This document shows, piece after piece, positions 6,117-53,718 of a DNA stretch of 64,000 nucleotides (position 1 is the stretch's first letter; every line of letters starts with the position of its first letter). Position numbers and translations under genes: made by a program. Source of the DNA: an uncultured SAR86 cluster bacterium (GTDB taxonomy: Bacteria; Pseudomonadota; Gammaproteobacteria; Magnimaribacterales; D2472); NCBI GenBank assembly GCA_902591925.1, contig CACJCN010000006.1, positions 9,919-73,918 of the forward strand, in the 5' to 3' direction. The notes beneath the pieces are model-generated. The model saw only the letters and a list, made by a program, of their open reading frames with translations, searched no databases and was not told the origin of the DNA.

Positions 6117-8072
6117 TTAATCAATTGGTCTGAATCGAACTAATAAATCATGTAATGTATTTCTTCTAACAAGCTTTGCACCAGGATCCTTGGTCAATGG
6201 CCTCCATGTATATGCTATTGAATTGCCAAAAATTGGTATGTTAAAGAAAATACCTTTATCAAAACTGCCCTCCCCAAATTGTTCAGATGAAACATCTGTA
6301 AATGTTGCAAAAGCACCGAAACTTACTCCACTTTCTAACCTTCTAGAAAATTCAACAGTTGTGCCTATATCACCTGCCAAATACTCACCCATAGATATTT
6401 TTAAATCAAAGGGTATTATTCCATAATTTCTATAGTAAAAATTTGCTGTCAAAAAAGTGTTTTCGTAATCTAAGTGACCAAAACTCCACTCATAATCCCT
6501 CTTTTTTACTTTAAAAAGTTCAGCACCAAAAGAATAATTTGTATTTGGTTTAAAAAATAAATATTCAGCTCCTACACCAGAGAACATATCCTCAAGAATG
6601 CCTCCTGTTATCATCATATGATGATTATCTTTTGGAGTCATATGATAATCAAATTGCGCTCTACCAATTAAAATACCCTCATCCATATTTTTAAGATATT
6701 GCTTCACATCAGATCTTACTTGGGCTGGAAAAGTATCTATTGGTGGAAACCTTAAATCATCAAAATTATTTGCAAGACTATATTTTAAATTAACATTAAA
6801 AAATAAATTTTCTCTCAAAATAATCTCAGTATTATTCTCAATAAGGAAGGCGCCTTTAAAAAATTCTTCCCTTGATGCAATAAAAGGTTTAAATCTAAAT
6901 CCTGTGGACGTATTAAAAAGACTAGTGGTTGGTCTTTCATAAATAACTGTAGCATTTCTTTTAAAAGCTTCGTCAATTTCAGAAACGCCTCTCAAATCTG
7001 CAATTTTGATGTCTTTTTTAATATTTTTATCAATACCAGCCTTTAATGATGCCTCTGAAATAATTCTTTCAACAACATTTAAATCAGGATGTATAAATTG
7101 AGTTAACTCTAAGCCAATTGATTTCGAACTTTCTGAAATTTTTTTTACACCAATTCCATTTTCTTCCAAATTTCTAATAAGCTTTGTATATTTATCATCA
7201 TCTTCATTAGTATCAGGATTTTGATATTCGTATTTTTTATAAGATGACTTTGGACTATTTTTGTAAACTATTTTCAACGAGGCATAATTGCCTCTTTCGT
7301 ATGAGAGACCAACATTAAAATTTTCATTTATTGAATAAGATATTCCAAATGAATATTCACTTTTCTTTTTTTCATATGCGATAATTTGAGAATCTACATT
7401 TGTAGTATCTTTTTCAATCATAAATAACAAGTTCCTATTTAAAGCATAAGAGACTCCATAAAAAGGAGAAGCTGTTTTACCTGAAAAATATTTTTTTAAA
7501 TTAAGTTGTCCGCCTTTATCTTCGAAATTTATAGGTCTATTTTTAAAATCTTCTCTAATGTACCCGAATGGATTAGATATTTTTGAATTAGATCCGTTTA
7601 ATTGTCCCCATCCAAGTCCAAGATGAAAATCTAATTTATTTTTTCCATAACTTGCAACAATATATTCAGAATTATGTAGCCCCGTTCCAGCAAAATCATT
7701 TAATCCGACAGCTATTGCAGGAAAAATACCTTCTTCTTTTAGTCTGATTTTTACATTAAATCCTTTATCTTTATAATCTTGATACGAATATCCTGGATAG
7801 GGTCTTCCTTGAATATTGCTGTAAAAAAAAGATGCCTCAAACCAGTCATATGGATTTGATGAAAGAGTTATTTTTTGATCTGGTGTTCCGTCATAAAGTG
7901 TTACTCCATGAGCACCTTCATCATAAAATCTGGCTGTAGGTAAATTTATAAGACCCACAACACCATGATTGTTATATATGTTATAAGTGAAATTATCCGC
8001 ATAAATAACGGATGATAAAAAAAGAAATATAAAAATAAAATCTTTTTTTATAAAATTAGAATTTTCTAACAT
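6117..8072 (-). CDS. YjbH/GfcD-family outer-membrane beta-barrel protein
   Basis: Signal peptide; GVVGLINLPTARF, YQDYKDKGFNVK, FAGTGL..SEY, QVRSDVKQY, GDIGTTVEFSRR, FDKGIFFNIP and WRPLTKDPG motifs characteristic of YjbH. Confidence 0.85.
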   Translation of the reverse strand: MLENSNFIKKDFIFIFLFLSSVIYADNFTYNIYNNHGVVGLINLPTARFYDEGAHGVTLYDGTPDQKITLSSNPYDWFEASFFYSNIQGRPYPGYSYQDYKDKGFNVKIRLKEEGIFPAIAVGLNDFAGTGLHNSEYIVASYGKNKLDFHLGLGWGQLNGSNSKISNPFGYIREDFKNRPINFEDKGGQLNLKKYFSGKTASPFYGVSYALNRNLLFMIEKDTTNVDSQIIAYEKKKSEYSFGISYSINENFNVGLSYERGNYASLKIVYKNSPKSSYKKYEYQNPDTNEDDDKYTKLIRNLEENGIGVKKISESSKSIGLELTQFIHPDLNVVERIISEASLKAGIDKNIKKDIKIADLRGVSEIDEAFKRNATVIYERPTTSLFNTSTGFRFKPFIASREEFFKGAFLIENNTEIILRENLFFNVNLKYSLANNFDDLRFPPIDTFPAQVRSDVKQYLKNMDEGILIGRAQFDYHMTPKDNHHMMITGGILEDMFSGVGAEYLFFKPNTNYSFGAELFKVKKRDYEWSFGHLDYENTFLTANFYYRNYGIIPFDLKISMGEYLAGDIGTTVEFSRRLESGVSFGAFATFTDVSSEQFGEGSFDKGIFFNIPIFGNSIAYTWRPLTKDPGAKLVRRNTLHDLLVRFRPID

Positions 8073-8085
8073 TCATAATCTCTAT

Positions 8086-9933
8086 CTAATTGTTATCAAT
8101 TGCAGATAAAGACGCTAATGCAACTCCAAGATTACCTAAAATAGATACATATGCTTGAGTTGCAAGCCTTCTTGATGCAGAGTTATCAATTTTTCTAGGT
8201 ACAAAAATTACTGATCCTGGATACATTTTGAGATCTCGAGGCTGATTTGCAAATAAGTTTCTTTGTTTTGAATATCTCTGTGTTTCACCGTTTGGATGAA
8301 GTATATAAATAGATTCCTTGTCAGCTAATCTCTTATAACCACCAGATTTTTCTACAAAATAATCAACACCTCTATTTGATGAAAAAGATACCGCACCCTC
8401 TGAAGAAACTTCTCCGTATACAAAAACACTATTTGTTTTTTCTGGAACAATTAAGGAATCTCCTTCACGTATATTTATAAAATTCTCACTTTCTTCACTC
8501 AATAAATCTATAACAATTCTGCCACTAGGAGAAGAATTTTTTATTTCCTCAGTTAATCTTACAATCGGCATTAAATCAGCATTCTGTCCAATGTTTAATT
8601 GACTAATAAGAATAATGTTATCGAGGAACTCCTCGTATAATAATTCTTGAGCTTTTTCATTAATTAATTTTGCATCATTATTTTCATAAACAGCCCCAAA
8701 AGGATAGGCATTTTCAGTAAATCCTCCAGCTTTTTTAACTAAATCTTCAATTGTTTCTCCTGCAGCCATTATATATTTACCTGGTTTATAAACAGCACCT
8801 GTAATTGAAGCAGTTCTGTATGAAAATTCTCTAATATAAATTAAATCTCCATCAATGGGTTTGATAGATTCAAACTGAGAAACATTTGTTATAGGTATTG
8901 ATCTAAGACTACCATCTAATATCCTTTCTAATGAAATGTTTTGAAGATCTGCTGTTTGTTTGATTCCATTTGAATATTTTACAATACTATCTAAAAATTG
9001 ATCTTCAGAAATTTCGTACTTTGCTGGTCTTTTAACTGCGCCATTGATTGTGATAACTCCTTTTCTGGCTTCAACAAAGACAACATCACCGGAACGAAGG
9101 CGTTTTTTTAATGAGTAATTTCCATCAATAAGTATGTCATACACATCCAAGGTATCAACTATCTTACCATTTCTTAGTAAATTTATTTCTCTGTAAGATC
9201 CAAATTCATTTACACCTCCAGCAGCATTCAAAGCATGTAATATGTTTGAGTTTCCAGTGAGAGTATAAACACCAGGATTTTCTGCATTACCGGATACTAA
9301 GATATTAACATCTCTTATTTTATCTAAGCTGATGTATGAATCAGTTTGAATGTATACAGAGTCAACAAAAGATTTCACAAGCGTGGAAGCTTCATCTAGA
9401 GTTAATCCAGCTAATGTTATTTTTCCAATATCTGGGATATTTATAGATCCATCTCCTTTGATAGTAAAAGTATCAAATAAATCTGATTCACCAATGAGTT
9501 GTATTCTTAAAATATCTCCGATATCCAGTGTGTAAGATGAATCAGGATTAGGCTCGTTTATTGGCATAAATGAAGTTTGAAATGTTTTGAAGAAGTCAGA
9601 TCCAAACAATTTAAGATCCTCAGAAATTTCGAGATTTTCGCTAGAATTAAGTCTTCTTTCAAGCTCCCTTAGATCATTCTCAAGTCTTGTCTTTAACTTA
9701 ATGAGTTCCTCTTGTTGCTCAAATTTGCTTGAGTAAAGTGTAGACCGATAATTGTTTTTAAGATCATCTATATTTTCATCTGCTCTATCCATTAGGTCAT
9801 CCTTTATATCCTCTGGAAGGCTATCTAGATATGATTCATCTAATTCTTGAGCATAAACAAAACTCAATGAAAACAAGAATATAAATGGTAAAAATTTTAA
9901 ACTATTCATAAATTTCTCTGGATTGAATAACAA
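8086..9933 (-). CDS. Polysaccharide export protein with multiple SLBB domains (KpsD/OtnA-like OPX)
   Basis: LFGSDFF, YTLDIGD Poly_export domain, repeated V.G.V..PG.Y SLBB units and a C-terminal amphipathic helix; no lipobox seen; true start may be MNSLKF (9909). Confidence 0.85.
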   Translation of the reverse strand: MLFNPEKFMNSLKFLPFIFLFSLSFVYAQELDESYLDSLPEDIKDDLMDRADENIDDLKNNYRSTLYSSKFEQQEELIKLKTRLENDLRELERRLNSSENLEISEDLKLFGSDFFKTFQTSFMPINEPNPDSSYTLDIGDILRIQLIGESDLFDTFTIKGDGSINIPDIGKITLAGLTLDEASTLVKSFVDSVYIQTDSYISLDKIRDVNILVSGNAENPGVYTLTGNSNILHALNAAGGVNEFGSYREINLLRNGKIVDTLDVYDILIDGNYSLKKRLRSGDVVFVEARKGVITINGAVKRPAKYEISEDQFLDSIVKYSNGIKQTADLQNISLERILDGSLRSIPITNVSQFESIKPIDGDLIYIREFSYRTASITGAVYKPGKYIMAAGETIEDLVKKAGGFTENAYPFGAVYENNDAKLINEKAQELLYEEFLDNIILISQLNIGQNADLMPIVRLTEEIKNSSPSGRIVIDLLSEESENFINIREGDSLIVPEKTNSVFVYGEVSSEGAVSFSSNRGVDYFVEKSGGYKRLADKESIYILHPNGETQRYSKQRNLFANQPRDLKMYPGSVIFVPRKIDNSASRRLATQAYVSILGNLGVALASLSAIDNN

Positions 9934-10001: not shown

Positions 10002-11909
10002 TTAAATTTCTAGGCCGGGAATAGTTACAGAGTCAATTGATAAAGCTTTCTTAATAATCTCATCCATTACTTCATTTACGTCTTCATCTTTTATAGTATT
10101 GAATTTGGATTGAAAAATAAATCTTATTCCAACTTTGATTTCTTTTGCAATATCATTTTTGTAATAATCAAATATAAATACTTCTTTAAGCAAATCATTT
10201 TCAAAAGATAAAATTGCCTTTTCTAATATTTTGCAATTTGAAAATTTTTTTATTGAAAAAGATAAATCTCTTGTGGAACAAGGGAAATCTGATATTTGAA
10301 TATACTTCTTACTATTAATATCAAAACAAACAGGATAGTCATCAGCATATTTAGTTTTTAAGGATGAGTCTAATTCTATTTCAAGATAAAATATTTTATT
10401 TTTTGATTTTGAGTTAATTTTTTCCCTAGATATTTCAACTATTTCAACATCTTTGCCAAGATTTTCATAATTTAAAAAATTACTAAGATACTCTAGATCA
10501 ATTTTTTTATTAAATTCTTTGTAATTCTTTCCAATTCTCCCGCTTGCAATTATTCCAATAACTCTTTTTTGTAAATCAGAATTTTTAACGTAAATGTCTG
10601 CTATCTCAAATAGCTTGATTATATCTTTTTGCCTATTTTCATTATAGATAAGATCATCTATGAGAGAGTCAAGAAGATCAGTTCTTAAGAAGTTTTTATT
10701 TTTATCCAGAGGATTATCAATGACAAATGAATTCTTGTTTTTTTTTGATGAAAAGGGATTATTTATGACTTCATAAAAACCCTTATCTATTAGTAATTTT
10801 TTTAATTTATTTTCATTGTTATGATTATGTCCTTTTGTATCAATACTAATCTTAAAGTTTTTTGTATTTATGTTGTCATAGCCTATAGCTCTAGCAATTT
10901 CCTCAGATAGATCATTTATATTTGATATATCATTTCTATAAGAAGGAACTAAAACAGAATTATCTTTAAATATGAAACCTAGTTTTCTGAGATATTCTTT
11001 ACATTTGATATCATCTAAATTCACTCCAAGGATACTTTTGATTTTTTCTATGTCGAAAAAAATCTTTTTAGAATTATGAGTTTTTGATTCTGAAAATAAC
11101 TCAACATTAATTATTTTTGTATGATTTTCAACAATATTTAAAAATCTTCTTAAAACATAATCGTGATTATTTTTGTCGGTATTTCTCTCAAATTTATAGG
11201 CAGCATCTGAAGTAATATTGTATTTTATTGGCCTTCCGAGTATTGCTTCAGGTTCAAAATATGCGCATTCTAAGAGAACATGTTTTGTTTTTTTGTTACA
11301 AGATGTATTCTTTCCACCAACAATTCCAGCAAAATTAATAACCTCCATATTATTATCTAAAAATACTAATTCATTTTCATCAATACAAATTTTACTACCC
11401 AACAAGGTTTCAAATTCTACTTTCTTGCTTAAAAAGTCTAGTGTTATAGGATCTTTTATTTTTAGAAAATCATAACAATGAGTTGGTTGACCTGTTTCAT
11501 AAGAAATAAAATTTGAAATATCTGTAAAAAAATTGATTTTTTTAAGATTTAAATCAATGAAGTAACTTTTTAAATCACCTTTATAATTTGAAGGGATATC
11601 TTCAATCTCTAATTTTAAAAAAGAAATATTACTACAAACTTTTTTTGCATTGTTATTGAAGGATAAAGAATAAGTCCTGATTTCCGGTTCATATATATCT
11701 TTATTGATATCAATTTCGTAAAACAATCTTAAATCTCTTAACAATCCATCAAGAGAGATACAATCTCCTCTGTTAGGCGTAAGTTCAAAGTTAAAAATTT
11801 CATCAGATATTTCATGTTCATGACCAAGTTGGAAAAATCTTTCTGACAATTCATTTATACTTGGTTTTGATTGAATATTTTCAACAAAATGTTTATGTGG
11901 AATCTTCAT
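10002..11909 (-). CDS. pheT: Phenylalanine-tRNA ligase beta subunit (short, 635 aa)
   Basis: TPNRGDC, GQPTH, LECAYF, VPSYRND..DL.EEIAR and C-terminal RDLSF anticodon-binding domain; follows pheS. Confidence 0.93.
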   Translation of the reverse strand: MKIPHKHFVENIQSKPSINELSERFFQLGHEHEISDEIFNFELTPNRGDCISLDGLLRDLRLFYEIDINKDIYEPEIRTYSLSFNNNAKKVCSNISFLKLEIEDIPSNYKGDLKSYFIDLNLKKINFFTDISNFISYETGQPTHCYDFLKIKDPITLDFLSKKVEFETLLGSKICIDENELVFLDNNMEVINFAGIVGGKNTSCNKKTKHVLLECAYFEPEAILGRPIKYNITSDAAYKFERNTDKNNHDYVLRRFLNIVENHTKIINVELFSESKTHNSKKIFFDIEKIKSILGVNLDDIKCKEYLRKLGFIFKDNSVLVPSYRNDISNINDLSEEIARAIGYDNINTKNFKISIDTKGHNHNNENKLKKLLIDKGFYEVINNPFSSKKNKNSFVIDNPLDKNKNFLRTDLLDSLIDDLIYNENRQKDIIKLFEIADIYVKNSDLQKRVIGIIASGRIGKNYKEFNKKIDLEYLSNFLNYENLGKDVEIVEISREKINSKSKNKIFYLEIELDSSLKTKYADDYPVCFDINSKKYIQISDFPCSTRDLSFSIKKFSNCKILEKAILSFENDLLKEVFIFDYYKNDIAKEIKVGIRFIFQSKFNTIKDEDVNEVMDEIIKKALSIDSVTIPGLEI

Positions 11910-12631
11910 TTAAATTGATTCAAAAAGTCTAGATTAGATTTGTAAAAATCTCGGATATCATTTACTCCATATTTAAGCATCGCAATTCTCTCAATTCCTA
12001 ATCCAAATGCAAGCCCAGAAAAATTATTTGAATCAATATTGCAATTCTCTAAAACAGTTGGATTTACGATTCCGCATCCCAATATTTCAAGCCACTTACC
12101 CTCTTTAGACATAATATCAACCTCAGCAGAAGGCTCTGTAAACGGAAAATAAGATGGCCTAAATCTAATCTTAGTTTCTGAACCAAATAAAGCCTGAATA
12201 ATGTCAAAAATTAAGTGTTTAAGATTTGAAAAACTAACATTTTCATCTACATAAATACCTTCAACTTGATGAAACATAGGAAGATGAGTCGCATCATCAT
12301 CTTTTCTATAGACTTTTCCACCAGAAATAAATGCTAAAGGAGGTTTTCTTTTTAACATACCTCTTATTTGAACAGGTGAAGTATGAGTTCTTAGAACATT
12401 GGTCTTATTACTGATATAAAATGTATCATGCATTTGTCGAGCAGGATGAGATTTTTTAATATTTAACATATCAAAATTATATTCTTCTGTTTCAATCTCA
12501 GGCCCACTAATTATTTCAAAGCCAAATGATTGCAAAAGATCCATAATAGAATCTTTAACTTGATTAATTGGATGATATGAACCTTTTTCTTCTATAAGTC
12601 TTGGAGCACTATGATCTATGGAATCTGGCAT
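11906..12631 (-). CDS. pheS: Phenylalanine-tRNA ligase alpha subunit (short, 241 aa)
   Basis: HPARQMHDTF, LRTHTSPVQ, FRPSYFPFTEPS, EILGCG and FGLGIERIAML motifs. Confidence 0.95.
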   Translation of the reverse strand: MPDSIDHSAPRLIEEKGSYHPINQVKDSIMDLLQSFGFEIISGPEIETEEYNFDMLNIKKSHPARQMHDTFYISNKTNVLRTHTSPVQIRGMLKRKPPLAFISGGKVYRKDDDATHLPMFHQVEGIYVDENVSFSNLKHLIFDIIQALFGSETKIRFRPSYFPFTEPSAEVDIMSKEGKWLEILGCGIVNPTVLENCNIDSNNFSGLAFGLGIERIAMLKYGVNDIRDFYKSNLDFLNQFK

Positions 12632-12642
12632 AATACCAGCGG

Positions 12643-12990
12643 CTAACTTGTTGCTATTTTAACAACCTTTCTAAAAGTTGAGTTGTCTGAAATAGCTAGG
12701 TCAGAGAGAATTTTTCTATCAATAATAATATTCTTTTTATTCATTGAGTCAACAAGTTTTGAATATGATACGCCGGCTTCCCTAGAGCCAGCATTAATTC
12801 TAGATATCCATAATGATCTAAAAGACCTTTTTCTATTTTTTCTATCTCTGAATGCGTACTGAAGTGATTTAATTTGAGATTGTTTTGCAGTTTTAAAAAG
12901 TCTGCTTCTGGCTCCATAATGACCTTTTGTAGATTTTAAAACCTTTTGATGTTTCGCTTTAGCTGTGACAGATTTTGTTACTCTAGGCAT
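12643..12990 (-). CDS. rplT: 50S ribosomal protein L20
   Basis: MPRV..., RSFRSLWISRINA, IDRKILSDLA. Confidence 0.97.
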   Translation of the reverse strand: MPRVTKSVTAKAKHQKVLKSTKGHYGARSRLFKTAKQSQIKSLQYAFRDRKNRKRSFRSLWISRINAGSREAGVSYSKLVDSMNKKNIIIDRKILSDLAISDNSTFRKVVKIATS

Positions 12991-12995
12991 ATGCG

Positions 12996-13190
12996 TTACT
13001 CATTGATTAATTTGGAAGCCATTTTCAAAACTGTTCCTGATAATTTGTTCAGGCCTCTATTATGACGCTTACGTTTAGTGGACTGTTTAGTAAGAATATG
13101 ATTTCTATTTGCGCTTTTGCTTTTTATAGATTTGCCAGTTTTTTTAAAACGCTTAGCAGCCCCAGAATGTGTTTTTAATTTATATCCCAT
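12996..13190 (-). CDS. rpmI: 50S ribosomal protein L35
   Basis: [21 protein letters not shown]. Confidence 0.97.
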
Positions 13191-13204
13191 AACAATATTT
13201 AAAT

Positions 13205-13741
13205 CTACTTCTTTTTTAAAGGAGATAAAACCATTAACAGTTGCCTGCCTTCAAGAGATGGTTCCTGATCAACTTGAGCGATATCTGCAACCTCATCTCT
13301 TAACTTCTGTAACAATCCTAATCCCATATCACTATTTAAAATTTCTCTTCCTCTAAAACGGACGCTTATTTTAGTCTTATCTCCATCAAGAATAAAGCTT
13401 TTAATCTTCTTTAATTTAATATTGTAATCTCCAACATCTGTTGAAGGTCTAAATTTTATTTCTTTTGTATTACTTCTCTTAGATTTTACTCTTGATGAAC
13501 TATTACTTTTTTTCTTATTAAATAAGTGCTTGCCATAATCTAAAATCTTACAAACAACTACCTCAGAATCACTTGATGAAACTTGAACCAAATCAAGAGA
13601 GGCTTTGTTAGCAGTACTAATTGCTTCATTTAAAGGAACCATTCCTTGTTTCTCACCATTTTCATTAATTAGCATAACCACATCAGCTTTTATCTTTTCA
13701 TTAATGGGAGAGGATTTAGTCTTACGAGTAGCTATTTTGAT
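13205..13741 (-). CDS. infC: Translation initiation factor IF-3 (probable non-canonical ATC start at 13741, or ATA at 13735)
   Basis: [26 protein letters not shown]. The frame extends upstream of the called GTG (13681) through PINEKI to an in-frame TAA at 13750, with no ATG/GTG/TTG in between. Confidence 0.9.
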
Positions 13742-13858
13742 TACCTTTTACAAGAGAAAATGTTGAATAAGTGATTTCAATATTAAATAAGTGAGGATAA
13801 ATTACTAATCATAAGAATCAATTTTAAACCATTAATATAATTTCGTAAATAAATCCAA

Positions 13859-28432: not shown

Positions 28433-29269
28433 TCAATTATATTTTTCATAAACATCTTTCCAGTTAATGGTAGGCGATATTCCATCTTTATCTAAGTGAG
28501 TTCCTAAACTTGGTAACGGCGCCCATAGTTTATATTTTTTTCCAAAAAGTATTTGTCTCCAACAAAACAACCAAGATTTGATAATCCTTATTAAATCTCT
28601 ATCCTGAGATTTAAGGAATCTATAAAGGGAAGATAACTGCAAAATATTCTTTTTAGTTAGGCTCATCCATAAACTTGAATCAAAATTATTATTTTTTGAT
28701 AAGGTCTCAAAAATCCATCTATTTTTCTTAAGTAATGTTTTTGAGGTCATAAAGGATCCAGTTGTACAAGATACTGTTCTCCAGATTGTTTTTGAATGAA
28801 ATCTAATAACACTTTGATAACTGTGAAGTTGTTTTTTGTAGTAATCCAAGTTGTCATATATCGTTATAAAATCAACATCATTTGATGAATTGAAGTACTT
28901 ATATGCTTCTTCAAGAGCGTTGGGTAAAAATAAATAATCATCTTCAGCCAAGTAAACCGTTTCTGCAATATTTTGATTAATTAAAATTTCGATTTGTTTT
29001 TCATATGTACCATAATTACCTACGCCGTTTAAATGAAGGAACTCAACATCATAATTAAATAGAATTTCTTTAAATAGGTTTTCATAAATATCTGGGCAAT
29101 TGTCTAAAATGATCCAAAATTTAACATTTAGTTTTCCTAAAGCATCTTTTAAAGATTTAACAGCTACTTTTGATAATTCAAATTTATCTTCTGGGTGGAT
29201 TAGAGGAATTTTTGAAACTCCAGGATAAATCCTGTATACAATTACAAGATCTTTTTTATTAGTCATCAT
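28433..29269 (-). CDS. GT-A fold glycosyltransferase-like protein
   Basis: ILDNC, VYLAEDDYLF, TTGSF motifs; start likely MMTNKK (29269 or 29266). Confidence 0.65.
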   Translation of the reverse strand: MMTNKKDLVIVYRIYPGVSKIPLIHPEDKFELSKVAVKSLKDALGKLNVKFWIILDNCPDIYENLFKEILFNYDVEFLHLNGVGNYGTYEKQIEILINQNIAETVYLAEDDYLFLPNALEEAYKYFNSSNDVDFITIYDNLDYYKKQLHSYQSVIRFHSKTIWRTVSCTTGSFMTSKTLLKKNRWIFETLSKNNNFDSSLWMSLTKKNILQLSSLYRFLKSQDRDLIRIIKSWLFCWRQILFGKKYKLWAPLPSLGTHLDKDGISPTINWKDVYEKYN

Positions 29270-31001
29270 AATATTTATTAGATTCACCCAAAAGCAAGTT
29301 TGTTACAATATCAAGTCCCTTATTCTTTCCTTTTTTTAAATCATCTAAATTATTTATATTGAGGTATGCATCTCTAGAAGTATTTTTCCCACTTACAGCA
29401 GTAGAGACATAAGGAAAGTCAAACACTTTTCTAAAATTAAAGTGATATGCATACTTTTTTGCACGTTCAACTTGTTGAGGAGTATTAGCTTTTACTAAAG
29501 AAGGTTCTTTTAGAATTTTAAAATAATGGTCTTTTGAATCGGGTTCTTTTGAAAATCCTTTATTTCTTGAGAAAGCCTCTCCAACAATTAGCAAAGGATT
29601 GGCTCTTAAAGCTATTTCAAGAGAAATATTTGATCCATAAACAACAGATAAATCTGAAATATCAGATAATATGTATGAGCTTATGTCACTATCGGGCTCA
29701 ATGATTTTGATATTTGATGGGATATTATCAAACATTTTTTTTATTTCTTCTGCAATTGGCTGATCTGTAGTAAAGCCTCCTTTAGACTCAGCAGGATGAA
29801 TTCTTACTGCAAGTTGTAAGTTATTTTCAATACTGAATTTTATAGTTTGATTTAACCAATCCAAAAGATCATTAAATATTGATGAAGGATAGAATATTTG
29901 GGCATCCCATAGAACATTTGTAAAAAGTGAAATCAGAGGTTTGGATTGATCGATATCTAATTTATCAATAATTTTTTGTTTATCAAGAATTGGATTTGGG
30001 TGATAATTAACATTATCTCTTCCTCCAGCAAGTTTTGATTGCATATATTTTTCAATTTTGATCTTTTTCTCATCTGTTAGAATTAAATTTTCCCAAATTT
30101 CATCGCTCTCTGTCAGATATGTTCTGTGATAAGTGTCATTGACTGATAATATAATAGTTTTTTGCCTATATGGCGTTCCCCAGATATAAATCGGTATTCC
30201 CTCTTTTCTAGCAAAGTCTGTAAGAATACCGTGTTCTAAATAAATTCCATGAACTGCGAAAATGCTACTAGGCTTAAAGTCTTTAAGCGATCTTTCAAGA
30301 AGGTCTATGTATTTAATTGATGATAATAAATATCTGTAATAAATTGCTTTATGGTAATGATTTGATTCTTCGAGACTGCCTCTAGCCAAAACTCGAAGTG
30401 CTGTAGATTTGGAATGTTCAGATATATTAATATTTTTATAGTAAATATCCTCTGAAAAAGATGTATTTTGTTGTTTTAAAAATGATTCAGCGTCTATTAT
30501 GTCTGAGTGTCTCTCAAAATGTTCTAGTTTAAGTTGATCAAGGCTTAGCTTAGTACAGAGCGCATTAATATTTTCATCACTTAACTTACACAAATCTAAT
30601 TCATTATATGCAAACTTTTTAAATTTATTTTCAAAAAAATATGGGTTATTATTTCCTGCAGGATCATGTGCGTATGCAGGCAAAGCAAAGCTGCATGACA
30701 TTATCCTGACATCAGCGCCCCTCATTTGTAGGGCTTTAGCTATTAAAGTTTCAGTAGCCAAAGGAGCCTCATAAAAACCGGTTACAGGGGCAATCAGAAT
30801 CTTTTTGTTAATAGCTTTATTTGGAATACATTCTGCACTGTTAATAAGCACTCTATCCCATTGATATAAAATAGGAAGGTGCAAAAAATACTTTAAAGGG
30901 CTCCCAATAAATCTTGAGAACCCAATTTTTTTTATTCTAGATAAAGTCTTTTTTATAACTGATTTTAAGAACCAATATAATTTCGGAATGATATCTTTCA
31001 T
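29259..31001 (-). CDS. Capsule-synthesis (KpsS/KpsC-like) GT-B protein
   Basis: HGIY.E.GIL, VRIHPAE, GSNISLE motifs in the C-terminal half; start likely MKDII (31001). Confidence 0.6.
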   Translation of the reverse strand: MKDIIPKLYWFLKSVIKKTLSRIKKIGFSRFIGSPLKYFLHLPILYQWDRVLINSAECIPNKAINKKILIAPVTGFYEAPLATETLIAKALQMRGADVRIMSCSFALPAYAHDPAGNNNPYFFENKFKKFAYNELDLCKLSDENINALCTKLSLDQLKLEHFERHSDIIDAESFLKQQNTSFSEDIYYKNINISEHSKSTALRVLARGSLEESNHYHKAIYYRYLLSSIKYIDLLERSLKDFKPSSIFAVHGIYLEHGILTDFARKEGIPIYIWGTPYRQKTIILSVNDTYHRTYLTESDEIWENLILTDEKKIKIEKYMQSKLAGGRDNVNYHPNPILDKQKIIDKLDIDQSKPLISLFTNVLWDAQIFYPSSIFNDLLDWLNQTIKFSIENNLQLAVRIHPAESKGGFTTDQPIAEEIKKMFDNIPSNIKIIEPDSDISSYILSDISDLSVVYGSNISLEIALRANPLLIVGEAFSRNKGFSKEPDSKDHYFKILKEPSLVKANTPQQVERAKKYAYHFNFRKVFDFPYVSTAVSGKNTSRDAYLNINNLDDLKKGKNKGLDIVTNLLLGESNKYYDD

Positions 31002-31008
31002 GAGAGTT

Positions 31009-32319
31009 CTAGGAGAATATTTTTTTGAGCTCCACAAGGTAATGCTTAATTTTTTTTAAATCACTTAATTTAATTATTGAGATATCTGCTAGCTTTTTAT
31101 TGGAGGTGTTAATGAATTTATACATATATGTAAACCAAACTAGTATTCTTGATATCAAAATTATAACAGGCATACCTAATATTCCTAATGATTTTATGGC
31201 CGGCACACATAAAATAAAAATTAAACATGAACCAAGAAAATTAACGAATGTAACAAAGCCTGGTCTATTTATTGACAAGAAGAAAGATTCAAATGAAGTT
31301 ATTGATGAAACAAAAATTGCCGAAGACATTAATACAATTGTAGGTGCAATTGCTTCACTAAAATCTTGTCCAAAGATTAAGGGGATAAAAAATATTGATA
31401 GTGTAGATAATAATAGAAATAAACATGAAACAATTGCCATCATCACTCTTGACGATTTTGCAGTCAGTTCAGCAGCTGACTCAAAATCTTTTCCTGAGAT
31501 TTCACCAAATAAATATGTACTAATTGATCTTGGAAGAGAATTAAGCCCATTGAAGGCTGTCAACGCAACAGAGTATATTCCTAAAGATCTCAATCCCAAT
31601 ATTCCTACCAAGAAAATATTTGGTAAGTTATTTATGAATATGGGGAAGATTGAAGATGGATATCTTTTTAGTGAATACCAATATAATTGCCTTATTCTAT
31701 GAAACTTAATACTAGATATGCTAGAAAATAAAATTTCTCTAAAAAAAAATATCCCAATCGAAGAGGATATAACATTTGATATTAAAAGAGATAGAGTTGC
31801 CGAGAAGCTATTTAAGCTTTCTTCCAAAGAAAATATAATTACTAATAAAAAATACGATATTACATTAGTTAAAATAATAATAGAATACTCTTTTGCCATG
31901 CCCTTTCCTAAAAACATGGTATGGAGAAACGTTAAAATAACAGTTATAAATATTAAGCAAATTATTGTAACTAAATAATAATTTGAGATCTTACTTATAT
32001 TTAATACTTGGAAGAGGTATTCATTAAAAAAAATACTAAATATAGACAAGATAGATATGAAACTTAATAAATTAAATATATTTATTAGAGCTATTTGGTT
32101 AAATTTTAAAAAATTTTTTTTATAAAAAAATAGTGAGCCAGTTGGTAAGGATAATGAGGTTAATGCAGCAGCCATTGTTGCAATTGTTACCATAAGTACA
32201 TATAGACCTCTATCTTCTGGTCCTAGGAGTCTGATAACTATAATGTTTGTAACTATCCCAATCGGAATTTGCAATGAATTAGCTAAGAAAACTTTAAAAA
32301 ATTTATCTAATAGTTTCAT
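31009..32319 (-). CDS. wzx: Oligosaccharide flippase (Wzx, MOP family)
   Basis: About 12 TM segments; RLLGPEDRG.Y and LGIYSVA motifs; located in the glycan cluster. Confidence 0.85.
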   Translation of the reverse strand: MKLLDKFFKVFLANSLQIPIGIVTNIIVIRLLGPEDRGLYVLMVTIATMAAALTSLSLPTGSLFFYKKNFLKFNQIALINIFNLLSFISILSIFSIFFNEYLFQVLNISKISNYYLVTIICLIFITVILTFLHTMFLGKGMAKEYSIIILTNVISYFLLVIIFSLEESLNSFSATLSLLISNVISSSIGIFFFREILFSSISSIKFHRIRQLYWYSLKRYPSSIFPIFINNLPNIFLVGILGLRSLGIYSVALTAFNGLNSLPRSISTYLFGEISGKDFESAAELTAKSSRVMMAIVSCLFLLLSTLSIFFIPLIFGQDFSEAIAPTIVLMSSAIFVSSITSFESFFLSINRPGFVTFVNFLGSCLIFILCVPAIKSLGILGMPVIILISRILVWFTYMYKFINTSNKKLADISIIKLSDLKKIKHYLVELKKIFS

Positions 32320-45268: not shown

Positions 45269-46885
45269 TTAATTATATAGACTATCTATATTAACAACAG
45301 ATTTAGAAGAGGGATACTTCACCATAATTTCACCATTTTTAGAAGTTTTCATTTCAAGATCTTTGCAAAGATCTAATAGAAATTCTTTTACTAATTTATT
45401 CCTTTCTGTTTCAAGATATTGTATTTGCAAATATGGAATGTCGTTTTCTTTGACGATATTTAAAACGGATTGCATCATCCATAACTCAATATCTCTTCCA
45501 AGAATCCTGCAACTCAGTAAGAATGTATCTAAAAAAGCTGTTTTTTTTGCAAGATCAAGTTTCAAAATAAACATCCCTATTTGACCGTGATCTCCAAAAT
45601 CATCTTTTACAGACAAAATAAATGATTTAAAGTTTCTATTTGCTTGAATTTTGCTTAAATCATTTTCTGAATATCTAATAGTTCTCATGTTAAATTGATT
45701 AGTTTTTTGTGACATTTGAGAAGCTCTTAACAAACTTGATTCAGAAATTTCTGTTAAATTAGGTTTTAAGTTTATTTTTTTTAAAAAACTTTTTTTGTCA
45801 AAATTAATCTCTTTGGACGCTTTATTAAATTTTGCACGAGATTTATATTGTTCAGACTTATTGATATCTTCTTGAGTAACTTGAATTTTTGAAAAATCAA
45901 ATAAATTTTCTAAAATTTTAGGCCATTTTTCTACCTCAGGAGGAGCTTCAACAACCATAACATCCGGGAGTACTTTTTTAACTTTTTCTCTTTCAATTGG
46001 ATTATCATCCCAAAATACAAAACTATCCAGACCAAGGTTTAATTCACTTGCGATTTGAATTATATTCTCTGATTTTTCAATCCAATTTATCCTGCTGCAA
46101 ACAATATCATCTTTTTTTAAAATCATTTCATCGTGACCATCAAATACACTCCATACATCTTTTTCTTCATTCTTTGAAGAAATTGCCAATAAGACTCCAT
46201 TTTTTTTGATGTTTTTAATTATTGCTTGAAAATCTTTAAAGGCATGACCAATGCCGTCACCTCCAAGTCTAATACCTTTGATTTCATCTTCTCCAATAAC
46301 ACCACCCCACAGGGTATTATCACAATCTAAAACAAGAACTTTTTTACATGCTGAAATAGATCTTTCAATTACTTTAGAAATCATTTTATCTATTTCCGAG
46401 AAACCCAATAATGAAACTCGCATATGTGAGAAATACCAATTTCTAGAATCAAATATGTTTTCATGTCCTAGTTCAGCAAATCGTTTATCCATATCAATTA
46501 AAAATAAATTTGGATTATCTTTTGCCAAATCATAAATTTTATCTTTAAAACTTATATATTCATTCAAATCATAATCAGCATATCTTGCTGATGTAATTAA
46601 ATTTTTACAAAAGTTATAGCTTATTGATAGATATATTTTTTTATTTAATTTAAGAGAGTCTTTAAGAGAGTCAACAATAAGATCAGTAGAGTTTTTTGAT
46701 TCTTCAGAATATATGTCTTCAAAAAAAATAATAGATATTAAGGTATCATAATCTTCAACTTTGGAGAAAGCATTTATTAAATTACCATAGTCGGCAAAAT
46801 TGATTTTTGTGAAATGTTTAGAAGTATTTTTCCAATTTGAAATAGATTGAGGCAAATAGGAAGATGCTACTAGAAGGGTTTTCAT
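45269..46885 (-). CDS. FkbH-like HAD-IIIC phosphatase / glyceryl-ACP transferase
   Basis: LVLDCDNTLWGG, ISSKN, INW..KS.N, FWDDNPIER, QKTNQFN, DDFGDHG, FLLSCR.LGR.IE. Confidence 0.92.
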   Translation of the reverse strand: MKTLLVASSYLPQSISNWKNTSKHFTKINFADYGNLINAFSKVEDYDTLISIIFFEDIYSEESKNSTDLIVDSLKDSLKLNKKIYLSISYNFCKNLITSARYADYDLNEYISFKDKIYDLAKDNPNLFLIDMDKRFAELGHENIFDSRNWYFSHMRVSLLGFSEIDKMISKVIERSISACKKVLVLDCDNTLWGGVIGEDEIKGIRLGGDGIGHAFKDFQAIIKNIKKNGVLLAISSKNEEKDVWSVFDGHDEMILKKDDIVCSRINWIEKSENIIQIASELNLGLDSFVFWDDNPIEREKVKKVLPDVMVVEAPPEVEKWPKILENLFDFSKIQVTQEDINKSEQYKSRAKFNKASKEINFDKKSFLKKINLKPNLTEISESSLLRASQMSQKTNQFNMRTIRYSENDLSKIQANRNFKSFILSVKDDFGDHGQIGMFILKLDLAKKTAFLDTFLLSCRILGRDIELWMMQSVLNIVKENDIPYLQIQYLETERNKLVKEFLLDLCKDLEMKTSKNGEIMVKYPSSKSVVNIDSLYN

Positions 46886-52128: not shown

Positions 52129-52418
52129 TTTCTTAACAATGATTTTGACGGTTTAAAATGCATTGTTGCAGTTTCTCCTAAGTACGAAATTTTTTTTGTT
52201 TTAGGATTAACAAATTTTCTAGGTCTTATATATTTTTTTGAAAAAGTTCCAAAACCTCTGATTTCCACTTTTTCATCTAAAGCAACTGCTTCAGTTATTG
52301 ATTCTAATATTATATCAATAGAATCAGCAATATCAGATTTACTTAATTCTGGGAATTCTTTTTTAAGTGATAGCTCTATATCAGATCTTGTGAAAGTGTC
52401 TTTATTTTTTCTATTCAC
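52125..52418 (-). CDS. ihfB: Integration host factor beta-like protein
   Basis: VEIRGFGTF, NPKT, HFKPS; position after rpsA. Confidence 0.85.
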   Translation of the reverse strand: MNRKNKDTFTRSDIELSLKKEFPELSKSDIADSIDIILESITEAVALDEKVEIRGFGTFSKKYIRPRKFVNPKTKKISYLGETATMHFKPSKSLLRK

Positions 52419-53718
52419 TCAGTTTTAATGAAATTCTTTCTCTTTCTGCATCAATTGCAAAAACAATACACTCAAGTTTTTGATCTTTTTTATAATTTTG
52501 AAGAGCGGCTTTTGGATCTTCTTCTTCAGAAATATCTGAAAGATGTATTAATCCATCAATATCGCCTTCAAGACCTATAAATATACCAAAATCAGTTATT
52601 GATTTGATGCTACCTTCAACTTTATCTCCAATTCCATATTTATTATCAAATTCAATCCATGGATTTGATTTTGTCTGCTTTAGTCCTAGGGAGATCCTTC
52701 TTTTATCATGATCAATTTCTAATATCATGACTTTTATTTTTTCACCCATTTCAACAACTTTAGATGGATGGATATTCTTGCTAGTCCAATCTAACTCTGA
52801 TAAATGTATGAGGCCTTCTATACCTTGTTCCAACTCTGCAAAACACCCGTAATCAGTTATGTTTGAAACATCTGCTTCATAGATGCCGCCAACAGTATAA
52901 TTTGATTCAACATTTTCCCAAGGATCATTCTGAATTTGTTTTAGACCAAGTGAAACTCTAAGCTTTTCTTTGTCAAAACTTAAAACTTTTACTTCTATTT
53001 CATCACCAACATTAAGATATTCATTTGGATTTGTTACTCTTGACCATGATATATCCGTTATATGAAGCAATCCATCAAGACCTCCTAAATCAATAAATGC
53101 TCCATAATCAGTTATATTTTTTACAGTTCCAGTTACTATTTGGCCCTCTTCAAGATTCTTAAGAAGCTCAACTTTTACTTCTGAATTATTTTTTTCTAAT
53201 ACAGCCTTCCTCGAAAGAACAACATTATTTCTTTTGTAGTCTAATTTAATTACCTTAAACTCTTGTAATGTATTTTCTATATCAGGAGCTTCTTTTAGTG
53301 GTCGCACATCAACTAATGACCCTGGAAGAAAAGCTTTGACAACATCAACCTCAACTGCAAAACCACCTTTAACGCGATTATGGATCTTTCCTGTTACAAA
53401 TTCTCCAGTTTCAAGTGCTTCTTCAAGCATCTTCCATGTAGAAATTTTTCTAGCTTTTTCTCTTGAGATTCTTGTTTCTCCGTGACCATCTTCTACTGCT
53501 TCAAGGGCCACTTCAACCTCATCACCAACTTCAATTTCTATTTCACCATCATTACTTCTAAATTCATCTAAGGAAATTATTCCCTCAGATTTAAGACCAA
53601 CATGAATCGTAACCCAATCTTTATCAATATCTAAAACTACACCTGATACTATAGATCCAGGTTGCATGTCTAAAGTGCTTAAATTTTTATCTAGTAACGT
53701 CGAAAAAGATTCTGACAT
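52411..53718 (-). CDS. rpsA: 30S ribosomal protein S1 (five S1 domains)
   Basis: GLKSEG, AFLPGSLVD, DYGAFIDLGG.DGLLHITDISW, RISLGLKQ repeats. Confidence 0.96.
   Translation of the reverse strand: MSESFSTLLDKNLSTLDMQPGSIVSGVVLDIDKDWVTIHVGLKSEGIISLDEFRSNDGEIEIEVGDEVEVALEAVEDGHGETRISREKARKISTWKMLEEALETGEFVTGKIHNRVKGGFAVEVDVVKAFLPGSLVDVRPLKEAPDIENTLQEFKVIKLDYKRNNVVLSRKAVLEKNNSEVKVELLKNLEEGQIVTGTVKNITDYGAFIDLGGLDGLLHITDISWSRVTNPNEYLNVGDEIEVKVLSFDKEKLRVSLGLKQIQNDPWENVESNYTVGGIYEADVSNITDYGCFAELEQGIEGLIHLSELDWTSKNIHPSKVVEMGEKIKVMILEIDHDKRRISLGLKQTKSNPWIEFDNKYGIGDKVEGSIKSITDFGIFIGLEGDIDGLIHLSDISEEEDPKAALQNYKKDQKLECIVFAIDAERERISLKLSE

Follow-up and report, generated by a model that had tools for sequence, protein, structure and literature searches.

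In bacteria, phenylalanyl-tRNA synthetase (PheRS) takes the form of an (alpha-beta)2 tetramer, represented by the structures from Escherichia coli (3PCO), Thermus thermophilus (2IY5) and Mycobacterium tuberculosis (7K98), and residues 1-88 of its alpha subunit, PheS, form a coiled-coil that is ordered solely upon tRNA binding (PMC8599791). In the M. tuberculosis complex one alpha arm contacts the tRNA elbow at G19, U20, C56, G57 and G45 (PMC8136816). A single tRNA touches all four PheRS subunits, and the monomeric mitochondrial PheRS, which consists of the catalytic module and the B8 domain, is fully active (PMC3275996). Alpha subunits truncated at the arm are found among the crystal structures, i.e., those of T. 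thermophilus (2AKW, 266 amino acids [aa]) and Staphylococcus haemolyticus (2RHQ, 294 aa), which are laboratory constructs. The arm truncation of the T. thermophilus enzyme reportedly activates phenylalanine and does not charge tRNA. Here we analyzed a 64-kb stretch of DNA from an uncultured SAR86 cluster bacterium (contig CACJCN010000006.1; the whole stretch is called the window), in which pheS (11906-12631, minus strand) encodes only a class II catalytic core of 241 aa, without the N-terminal coiled-coil, and the adjoining pheT encodes a beta subunit from which domain B2 has been excised.

Domain composition of the SAR86 PheRS

The Pfam scan of the 241-aa PheS returned PF01409 alone (E 4e-99, residues 5-240 against profile positions 2-246 of 246), and no match to PF02912, the N-terminal coiled-coil arm of ~85-90 aa, was found. 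TIGR00468 gave 315.3 bits (cut-off 237.45), with positions 65-323 of the 324 in the profile covered. When PheS was compared with the PDB by phmmer, its residue 3 fell on residue 90 of E. coli PheS, residue 93 of the A. baumannii protein and residue 86 of the T. thermophilus protein, and the core was ~55% identical to E. coli PheS residues 90-327 (E 7e-84). The entire ~88-aa N-terminal coiled-coil is gone, as the first-pass annotation of this DNA had proposed, and the edge of the deletion coincides with the domain boundary. The protein is cut at almost the same position as 2AKW and 2RHQ, with SAR86 PheS residues 4-6 aligned to chain residue 3 of the former and residue 37 of the latter, but the SAR86 form is a natural, selected enzyme of a living lineage. 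The first-pass annotation had also claimed that neither an upstream extension nor an attenuator leader fits before pheS, and this was confirmed by the position of the rplT stop codon (TAG), which sits 11 nucleotides (nt) before the pheS start so that the open reading frame (ORF) cannot be extended upstream. The spacer between the two genes (12632-12642, minus strand) is too small for a leader peptide, an attenuator or arm-coding DNA.

The FPFTEPS and LAFGLGIER motifs were kept in PheS, and the class II motif residues were invariant among 56 sequences. The AlphaFold2 (AF2) model built from a deeper alignment had a predicted local distance difference test (pLDDT) score of 88.1, with the first helix spanning residues 21-35 after a poorly defined stretch at residues 1-19; this model was used in place of the one obtained with a shallow SAR86-only alignment (pLDDT 52.7), which was set aside. 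A Foldseek search with the model returned bacterial PheS alpha chains with query-normalised TM-scores (TMq) of 0.83-0.86, and the target-normalised score was ~0.85 against apo chains, in which the core alone is ordered, vs ~0.60 against tRNA-bound chains, in which the arm is visible.

PheT (10002-11909, minus strand; 635 aa) starts within the pheS stop codon, the two overlapping as ATGA. Residue 34 of PheT aligns with residue 153 of E. coli PheT, so that B2 (EMAP/tRNA_bind, about residues 39-151) is excised, the approximate excision site being codons 32-35 (11805-11815, minus strand). PF01588 (tRNA_bind) had no match in the window PheT or in three other SAR86 PheT proteins, in agreement with the B2 loss that had been noted from the sequence beforehand. 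The protein retains the B1 N-terminus, the B3/4 editing domain (residues 118-263; 11121-11558, minus strand; PF03483, E 2.6e-36), B5, CLM and the B8 or FDX-ACB anticodon-binding domain (residues 540-622; 10044-10292, minus strand; PF03147, E 4.5e-14), and PF03483, PF03484, PF17759 and PF03147 all scored above their cut-offs. The equivalents of E. coli beta-H265, E334, T354 (Ser here) and A356, which we take to be editing-site residues, were kept in the alignment to the E. coli protein. PheT was shorter than its E. coli counterpart across every aligned segment, with zero insertions. The full B1-B8 set was not found, and TIGR00472 gave 358 bits against a cut-off of 402.65, so that this PheT may be missed or mislabelled by automated annotation or marker-based completeness estimates.

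With the canonical PheRS the SAR86 enzyme shares the alpha core (~55% identity to E. coli, TMq ~0.85), the beta domains B1, B3/4, B5, CLM and B8, and the infC-rpmI-rplT-pheS-pheT context, and it differs from it in being without the alpha 1-88 coiled-coil, without beta B2 and without a pheM-type leader. The best functional precedent is human mitochondrial PheRS (3CMQ), which works without the coiled-coil arm or B2 (PMC3275996), but this is a single chain with no beta scaffold or editing domain, whereas SAR86 keeps two subunits, CLM and B3/4. The window PheS is not of the mitochondrial monomeric type, since TIGR00469 gave 135 bits against a cut-off of 258 and a separate pheT follows residue 241; the sequence match to mitochondrial PheRS was also much weaker (E ~1e-33).

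Conservation and distribution of the arm-less pheS

The window, with a guanine plus cytosine (GC) content of ~29%, belongs to the SAR86 cluster (order Magnimaribacterales, Gammaproteobacteria) as judged by protein and locus matches, and the free-living type of genome suggested earlier fits this host, which is a free-living streamlined SAR86. With one genome scanned for each GTDB species, 71 SAR86 loci were obtained, and in 70 of them, including the closed chromosome CP097968.1, PheS was 239-242 aa long. The N-terminal boundary of PheS was identical in 70/70 loci, and the KVYRKDDD motif was present in 65 of these 70. The gap between rplT and pheS ranged from -4 to +16 nt in the loci that contain rplT, and PheT measured 632-646 aa where the whole gene lay inside the locus; the ATGA overlap was usually present. 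The median ratio of nonsynonymous to synonymous substitutions (dN/dS) was 0.11 over 737 SAR86 pheS pairs, and 96 of the 244 PheS alignment columns were invariant. The arm-less pheS is under strong purifying selection, and the arm-less state is old, because synonymous sites had reached saturation in 39% of the pairs.

Four marine metagenome runs, independent of one another, gave contigs that span the rplT-pheS junction (one at window coordinates 11649-13379, the other three at ~12467-13191) and carry substitutions only, with no indels; together with the SAR86 loci they exclude an assembly deletion at this junction, one of the two events that would have undone the first-pass reading. Ocean data (Tara and others) contained thousands of 241-aa PheS homologues at ~80% identity. 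One metatranscriptome contig (12603-12828) bridges rplT and pheS, which weakly supports their co-transcription. One locus (L070), on a 1.26-Mb contig of a MAG (metagenome-assembled genome; CALSPZ010000001.1), carries a pheS ORF of 150 aa after a shortened rplT and a 320-nt gap, and its pheT is broken; this disruption looks like long-read indel errors and not like biology. In addition, a 35-kb ENA contig (P0132) encodes a SAR86-like PheS of 200 aa whose first residue corresponds to residue 55 and whose terminal tail is unrelated, possibly because the copy is frameshifted or decaying in one population.

The distribution among relatives was followed with the CheckM gammaproteobacterial marker scores of SAR86 genomes (Ramfelt et al. 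2024, Table S1; PMC11582366). In Su-G9, PF02912 was scored 0, PF01409 1 and L20 1 in GCA_000384935.1 and GCA_000385055.1 (94-98.6% completeness), and PF02912 was also 0, with PF01409 and L20 at 1, in GCA_000384955.1 and in the TMED112 / CH-G1 genome GCA_002170245.2 (PMC11582366). On the other side, PF02912 is in the marker set of HIMB1674, a closed isolate of 1.62 Mb and 36.4% GC, and was scored present in Su-G3 (SAR86E, Baltic metagenome-assembled genomes [MAGs]), Su-G2 and Ma-G1 (PMC11582366). A few fragmentary Su-G3 MAGs have core-only or arm-only patterns (PMC11582366), which look like contig breaks. The arm-bearing SAR86 (HIMB1674 / Magnimaribacteraceae, Su-G2, Su-G3) belong to the same order, Magnimaribacterales, and have the PF01409 core scored in the same table, but differ in that PF02912 is scored present and in their larger genomes (1.5-1.66 Mb) and higher GC content (36-40%). 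Hence, the check among relatives that had been recommended came out in favor of a lineage-wide arm-less state in the streamlined SAR86 genera, and the loss is reportedly not order-wide but confined to the more streamlined, lower-GC lineages, the arm being kept in larger-genome SAR86.

Suzuki and CHAB-I-7 are sister families (Ramfelt et al. 2024, PMC11582366). Since both hold arm-less genomes while the arm-bearing Su-G2 and Su-G3 sit inside Suzuki, the pattern requires that the arm was lost twice or more, or else that the allele was transferred. The uniform N-terminal boundary of PheS favors a single origin. A tentative proposal, which we hold to be possible but rather doubtful as a whole, is that the arm-less pheS is a single derived allele, present in the CHAB-I-7 (TMED112) and derived Suzuki (D2472) genera and reportedly not in Su-G2/Su-G3, that it arose repeatedly or moved horizontally within SAR86, and that tRNA-Phe identity then contracted to the anticodon and the discriminator base. 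If this were true, SAR86 would offer a natural series with and without the arm, a cultured arm-bearing relative included, for probing the role of the PheRS elbow clamp. Two loci that were considered as arm-bearing SAR86 (L082 and L093) were rejected, as they come from other marine gammaproteobacteria whose PheT is only ~27% identical to that of the window; L093 has a PheS of 348 aa and a PheT of 795 aa. Horizontal acquisition of the core from Aquificae or Firmicutes was likewise rejected, the best structural and sequence matches being gammaproteobacterial, and the ranking that pointed to these phyla is misleading because it mirrors which peptide patterns happened to match.

Outside SAR86 the arm-less form was rare. 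Among the 150 top-ranking cluster representatives of a set of 1.84 billion proteins, nearly all full-length matches begin at their own residue 86-110. The short PheS matches were rejected as further arm-less lineages, since nearly all were fragments on ~1-kb contigs whose clusters have full-length members, and a single one (P0278/L081) was genuine. This Logan contig (SRR27871537; 4.2 kb, 11% GC, UGA read as Trp) carries rpmI-rplT-pheS-pheT, with pheS at 798-1547 encoding an arm-less PheS of 249 aa that starts at the rplT stop, and with a PheT of 792 aa. This was the one independent clean arm loss encountered, and its bearer looks like an ultra-reduced insect symbiont related to Enterobacterales endosymbionts. 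The clean loss of the arm and a PheS that abuts rplT are shared with SAR86, but L081 is a singleton contig of a host-restricted symbiont with extreme genome decay, and its PheT still has 792 aa. In another symbiont genome (L092, GCA_054403715.1, 2343-3319) pheS consists of two separate ORFs, one of 45 aa with a weak PF02912 match and one of 272 aa for the core, the core closely resembling a Palibaumannia PheS fragment, and this reflects either ongoing erosion of the arm or a frameshift error. The relatives of L081 among the insect endosymbionts (Buchnera, Blochmannia, Wigglesworthia, Arsenophonus; genomes of 0.4-0.8 Mb) have a PheS of 326-337 aa without exception.

The two losses also occur separately. 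A marine gammaproteobacterium with 28.7% GC (L082, GCA_038141665.1, 6001-8979; also L083-L091) has an arm-bearing PheS of 337 aa and a B2-less PheT of 653 aa, and bacteria of this type are abundant and were also found in Saanich Inlet at 120 m. In the Syntrophomonas loci L073, L075, L077, L078 and L080 PheT is 684-690 aa long and ~1.2-1.35 kb lie between rplT and an arm-bearing pheS; no tRNA_bind (B2) domain was detected in the PheT of L073, the one locus scanned for it, so that B2 loss is not limited to marine streamlined bacteria. In SAR86 the two are combined.

Proposed tRNA recognition without the arm

We consider it quite probable that the window encodes the housekeeping (alpha-beta)2 PheRS of a streamlined SAR86, that the arm was cleanly deleted and B2 lost, and that the enzyme is expressed, selectively maintained and able to bind tRNA-Phe without an elbow clamp. 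Since purifying selection acts on the gene and the CLM interface domains are kept, we infer that tRNA-Phe is charged as an (alpha-beta)2 tetramer. In the proposed mechanism, SAR86 PheRS would bind tRNA-Phe via contacts of B8 with the anticodon (G34, A35, A36), the acceptor end would be held in the alpha active site, and the elbow formed by the D-loop, the T-loop and the variable loop would stay unclamped. A cell that grows slowly and has a small tRNA set might put up with less binding energy and with the loss of discrimination at position 20, and pheS expression would be coupled to that of rplT (L20) by a spacer of <=16 nt or by overlapping codons, and not by a pheM-type attenuator. The first-pass annotation had offered a choice between a different mode of tRNA recognition and a separately encoded arm; because the B8 anticodon-binding domain and the catalytic core are kept, it appears more likely that less of the tRNA is recognised than that it is recognised in a new way.

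Several observations weigh against this reading. Deletion of the arm of T. thermophilus PheRS reportedly abolishes aminoacylation, which makes a natural arm-less enzyme notable and means that some compensation may be needed in SAR86. No compensating insertions relative to E. coli were seen in the PheS or PheT alignments. No tRNA-Phe gene was found in the window, which has Pro, Leu and Cys tRNAs only, or in 58 SAR86 loci, and every sequencing run with the locus is a mixed metagenome. For the absence of the arm across whole genomes the source is a published CheckM table of incomplete single-amplified genomes and MAGs, and the RNA evidence consists of one short contig, whose library may contain DNA.

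The reported need for the arm in T. thermophilus also speaks for an arm supplied in trans, either as a stand-alone Phe_tRNA-synt_N protein or by a second full-length PheRS that charges the tRNA, and the split pheS of L092, with its 45-aa arm ORF beside the 272-aa core, indicates that split forms are possible. However, a hidden Markov model (HMM) built from 102 arms gave nothing in the six-frame translations of the 64-kb window or of the 71 SAR86 loci (best E-value 1.4), yet it detected the arms of all nine outgroup loci used as positive control (E 1e-18 to 5e-23). A stand-alone arm or a second full-length pheS is unlikely and is argued against because PF02912 is 0 genome-wide while PF01409 is 1, in TMED112 and in Su-G9, with one genome of the latter 94-98.6% complete. 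Furthermore, the strong purifying selection on an arm-less gene in a canonical operon, in which pheS adjoins pheT downstream of rplT, fits a sole essential copy. The separately encoded arm is disfavored by the empty HMM searches and by the zero PF02912 count of the near-complete arm-less genomes, the second pheS by the single copy of PF01409, and we regard supply in trans as distinctly improbable.

Compensation by a protein unrelated to the arm, such as a general tRNA-binding protein or altered PheT surfaces, or by a changed tRNA-Phe, seems to us somewhat less improbable, although still a minor prospect. PheT evolves fast (38-59% identity, vs 71-82% for PheS), which is compatible with remodelled RNA-binding surfaces, but the protein is shorter than that of E. 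coli in all aligned segments without any insertion, and no candidate partner gene is conserved beside the operon; this explanation in part refines the unclamped enzyme proposed above and is not an exclusive alternative to it. That the arm-less gene is an artefact (a deletion made in assembly or a wrongly called start codon) or a decaying pseudogene is extremely unlikely. The locus is hard to assemble, as both PheRS subunits were missed in four SAR86 assemblies (Dupont et al. 2012), and the related 200-aa fragment P0132 appears damaged. Against this stand a junction crossed in four independent metagenome assemblies, a gene that is alike in seventy species genomes including a closed chromosome, upstream DNA occupied by rplT so that an earlier start is impossible, and the median dN/dS of 0.11. 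An expressed and maintained PheRS that binds tRNA-Phe with the elbow unclamped is the explanation that we prefer.

The operon, its surroundings and the meaning of arm loss

The genes form a compact operon on the minus strand, in the order infC-rpmI-rplT-pheS-pheT. Upstream of pheS, rplT (12643-12990) encodes ribosomal protein L20 (115 aa; PF00453, E 5.9e-40), rpmI (12996-13190) is an ORF for ribosomal protein L35 (64 aa) at the position whose counterpart in related loci is PF01632, and infC (13205-13741) encodes IF3, with the Pfam domains IF3_N and IF3_C. Translation of infC probably starts at AUC (13741) or AUA (13735), both upstream of the GTG in the ORF list: in the region 13682-13750 (minus strand) a 22-residue in-frame upstream translation extends the IF3 N-terminus, and AUC/AUA come directly after a stop codon. 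In E. coli, IF3 is translated from an unusual AUU-class start codon that serves autoregulation, and the SAR86 start candidates fit that pattern. Elsewhere in the window, ribosomal protein S1 (52411-53718, minus strand) has 435 aa and five S1 stretches, where E. coli S1 has 557 aa and six, so that in this genome a further translation protein may have been reduced at the domain level. Two long ORFs, of 538 aa (45269-46885, minus strand) and 592 aa (29259-31037, minus strand), had no Pfam match at E <= 1e-5.

The translation operon is flanked on one side by exopolysaccharide export genes (6117-9933), namely yjbH and a wza-like gene whose product has SLBB and Poly_export domains, and on the other by a long surface-polysaccharide cluster (14458 to ~42000) with GT2 genes, rmlB- and rmlD-like genes, a Wzy-like ligase and a Wzx-like flippase. 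These polysaccharide surroundings are probably a hypervariable island. IF3, L20, L35 and both PheRS subunits had been listed as "not found" in four SAR86 assemblies, and their possible dispensation was raised (Dupont et al. 2012, PMC3358033). Because hypervariable islands break metagenome assemblies and the HMM scores of the proteins are reduced, the setting of the operon plausibly explains that report. In the literature searched we found no paper that describes the loss of the PheRS arm in SAR86, nor any on SAR86 aminoacyl-tRNA synthetases.

The PheRS coiled-coil is treated as a standard bacterial part: CheckM counts it among the single-copy markers of Gammaproteobacteria, even the Buchnera-class endosymbionts in this comparison have retained it, and through it one tRNA comes into contact with all four subunits. 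Since PF02912 is missing and PheT falls below the TIGR00472 cut-off, arm-less SAR86 genomes are scored as less complete than they truly are. A globally abundant free-living ocean lineage has long been without the arm, which shows that under some conditions cells can do without it in vivo. As the order also includes arm-bearing relatives, of which one is cultured, the cost of its loss in affinity, tRNA discrimination or growth rate is directly measurable.

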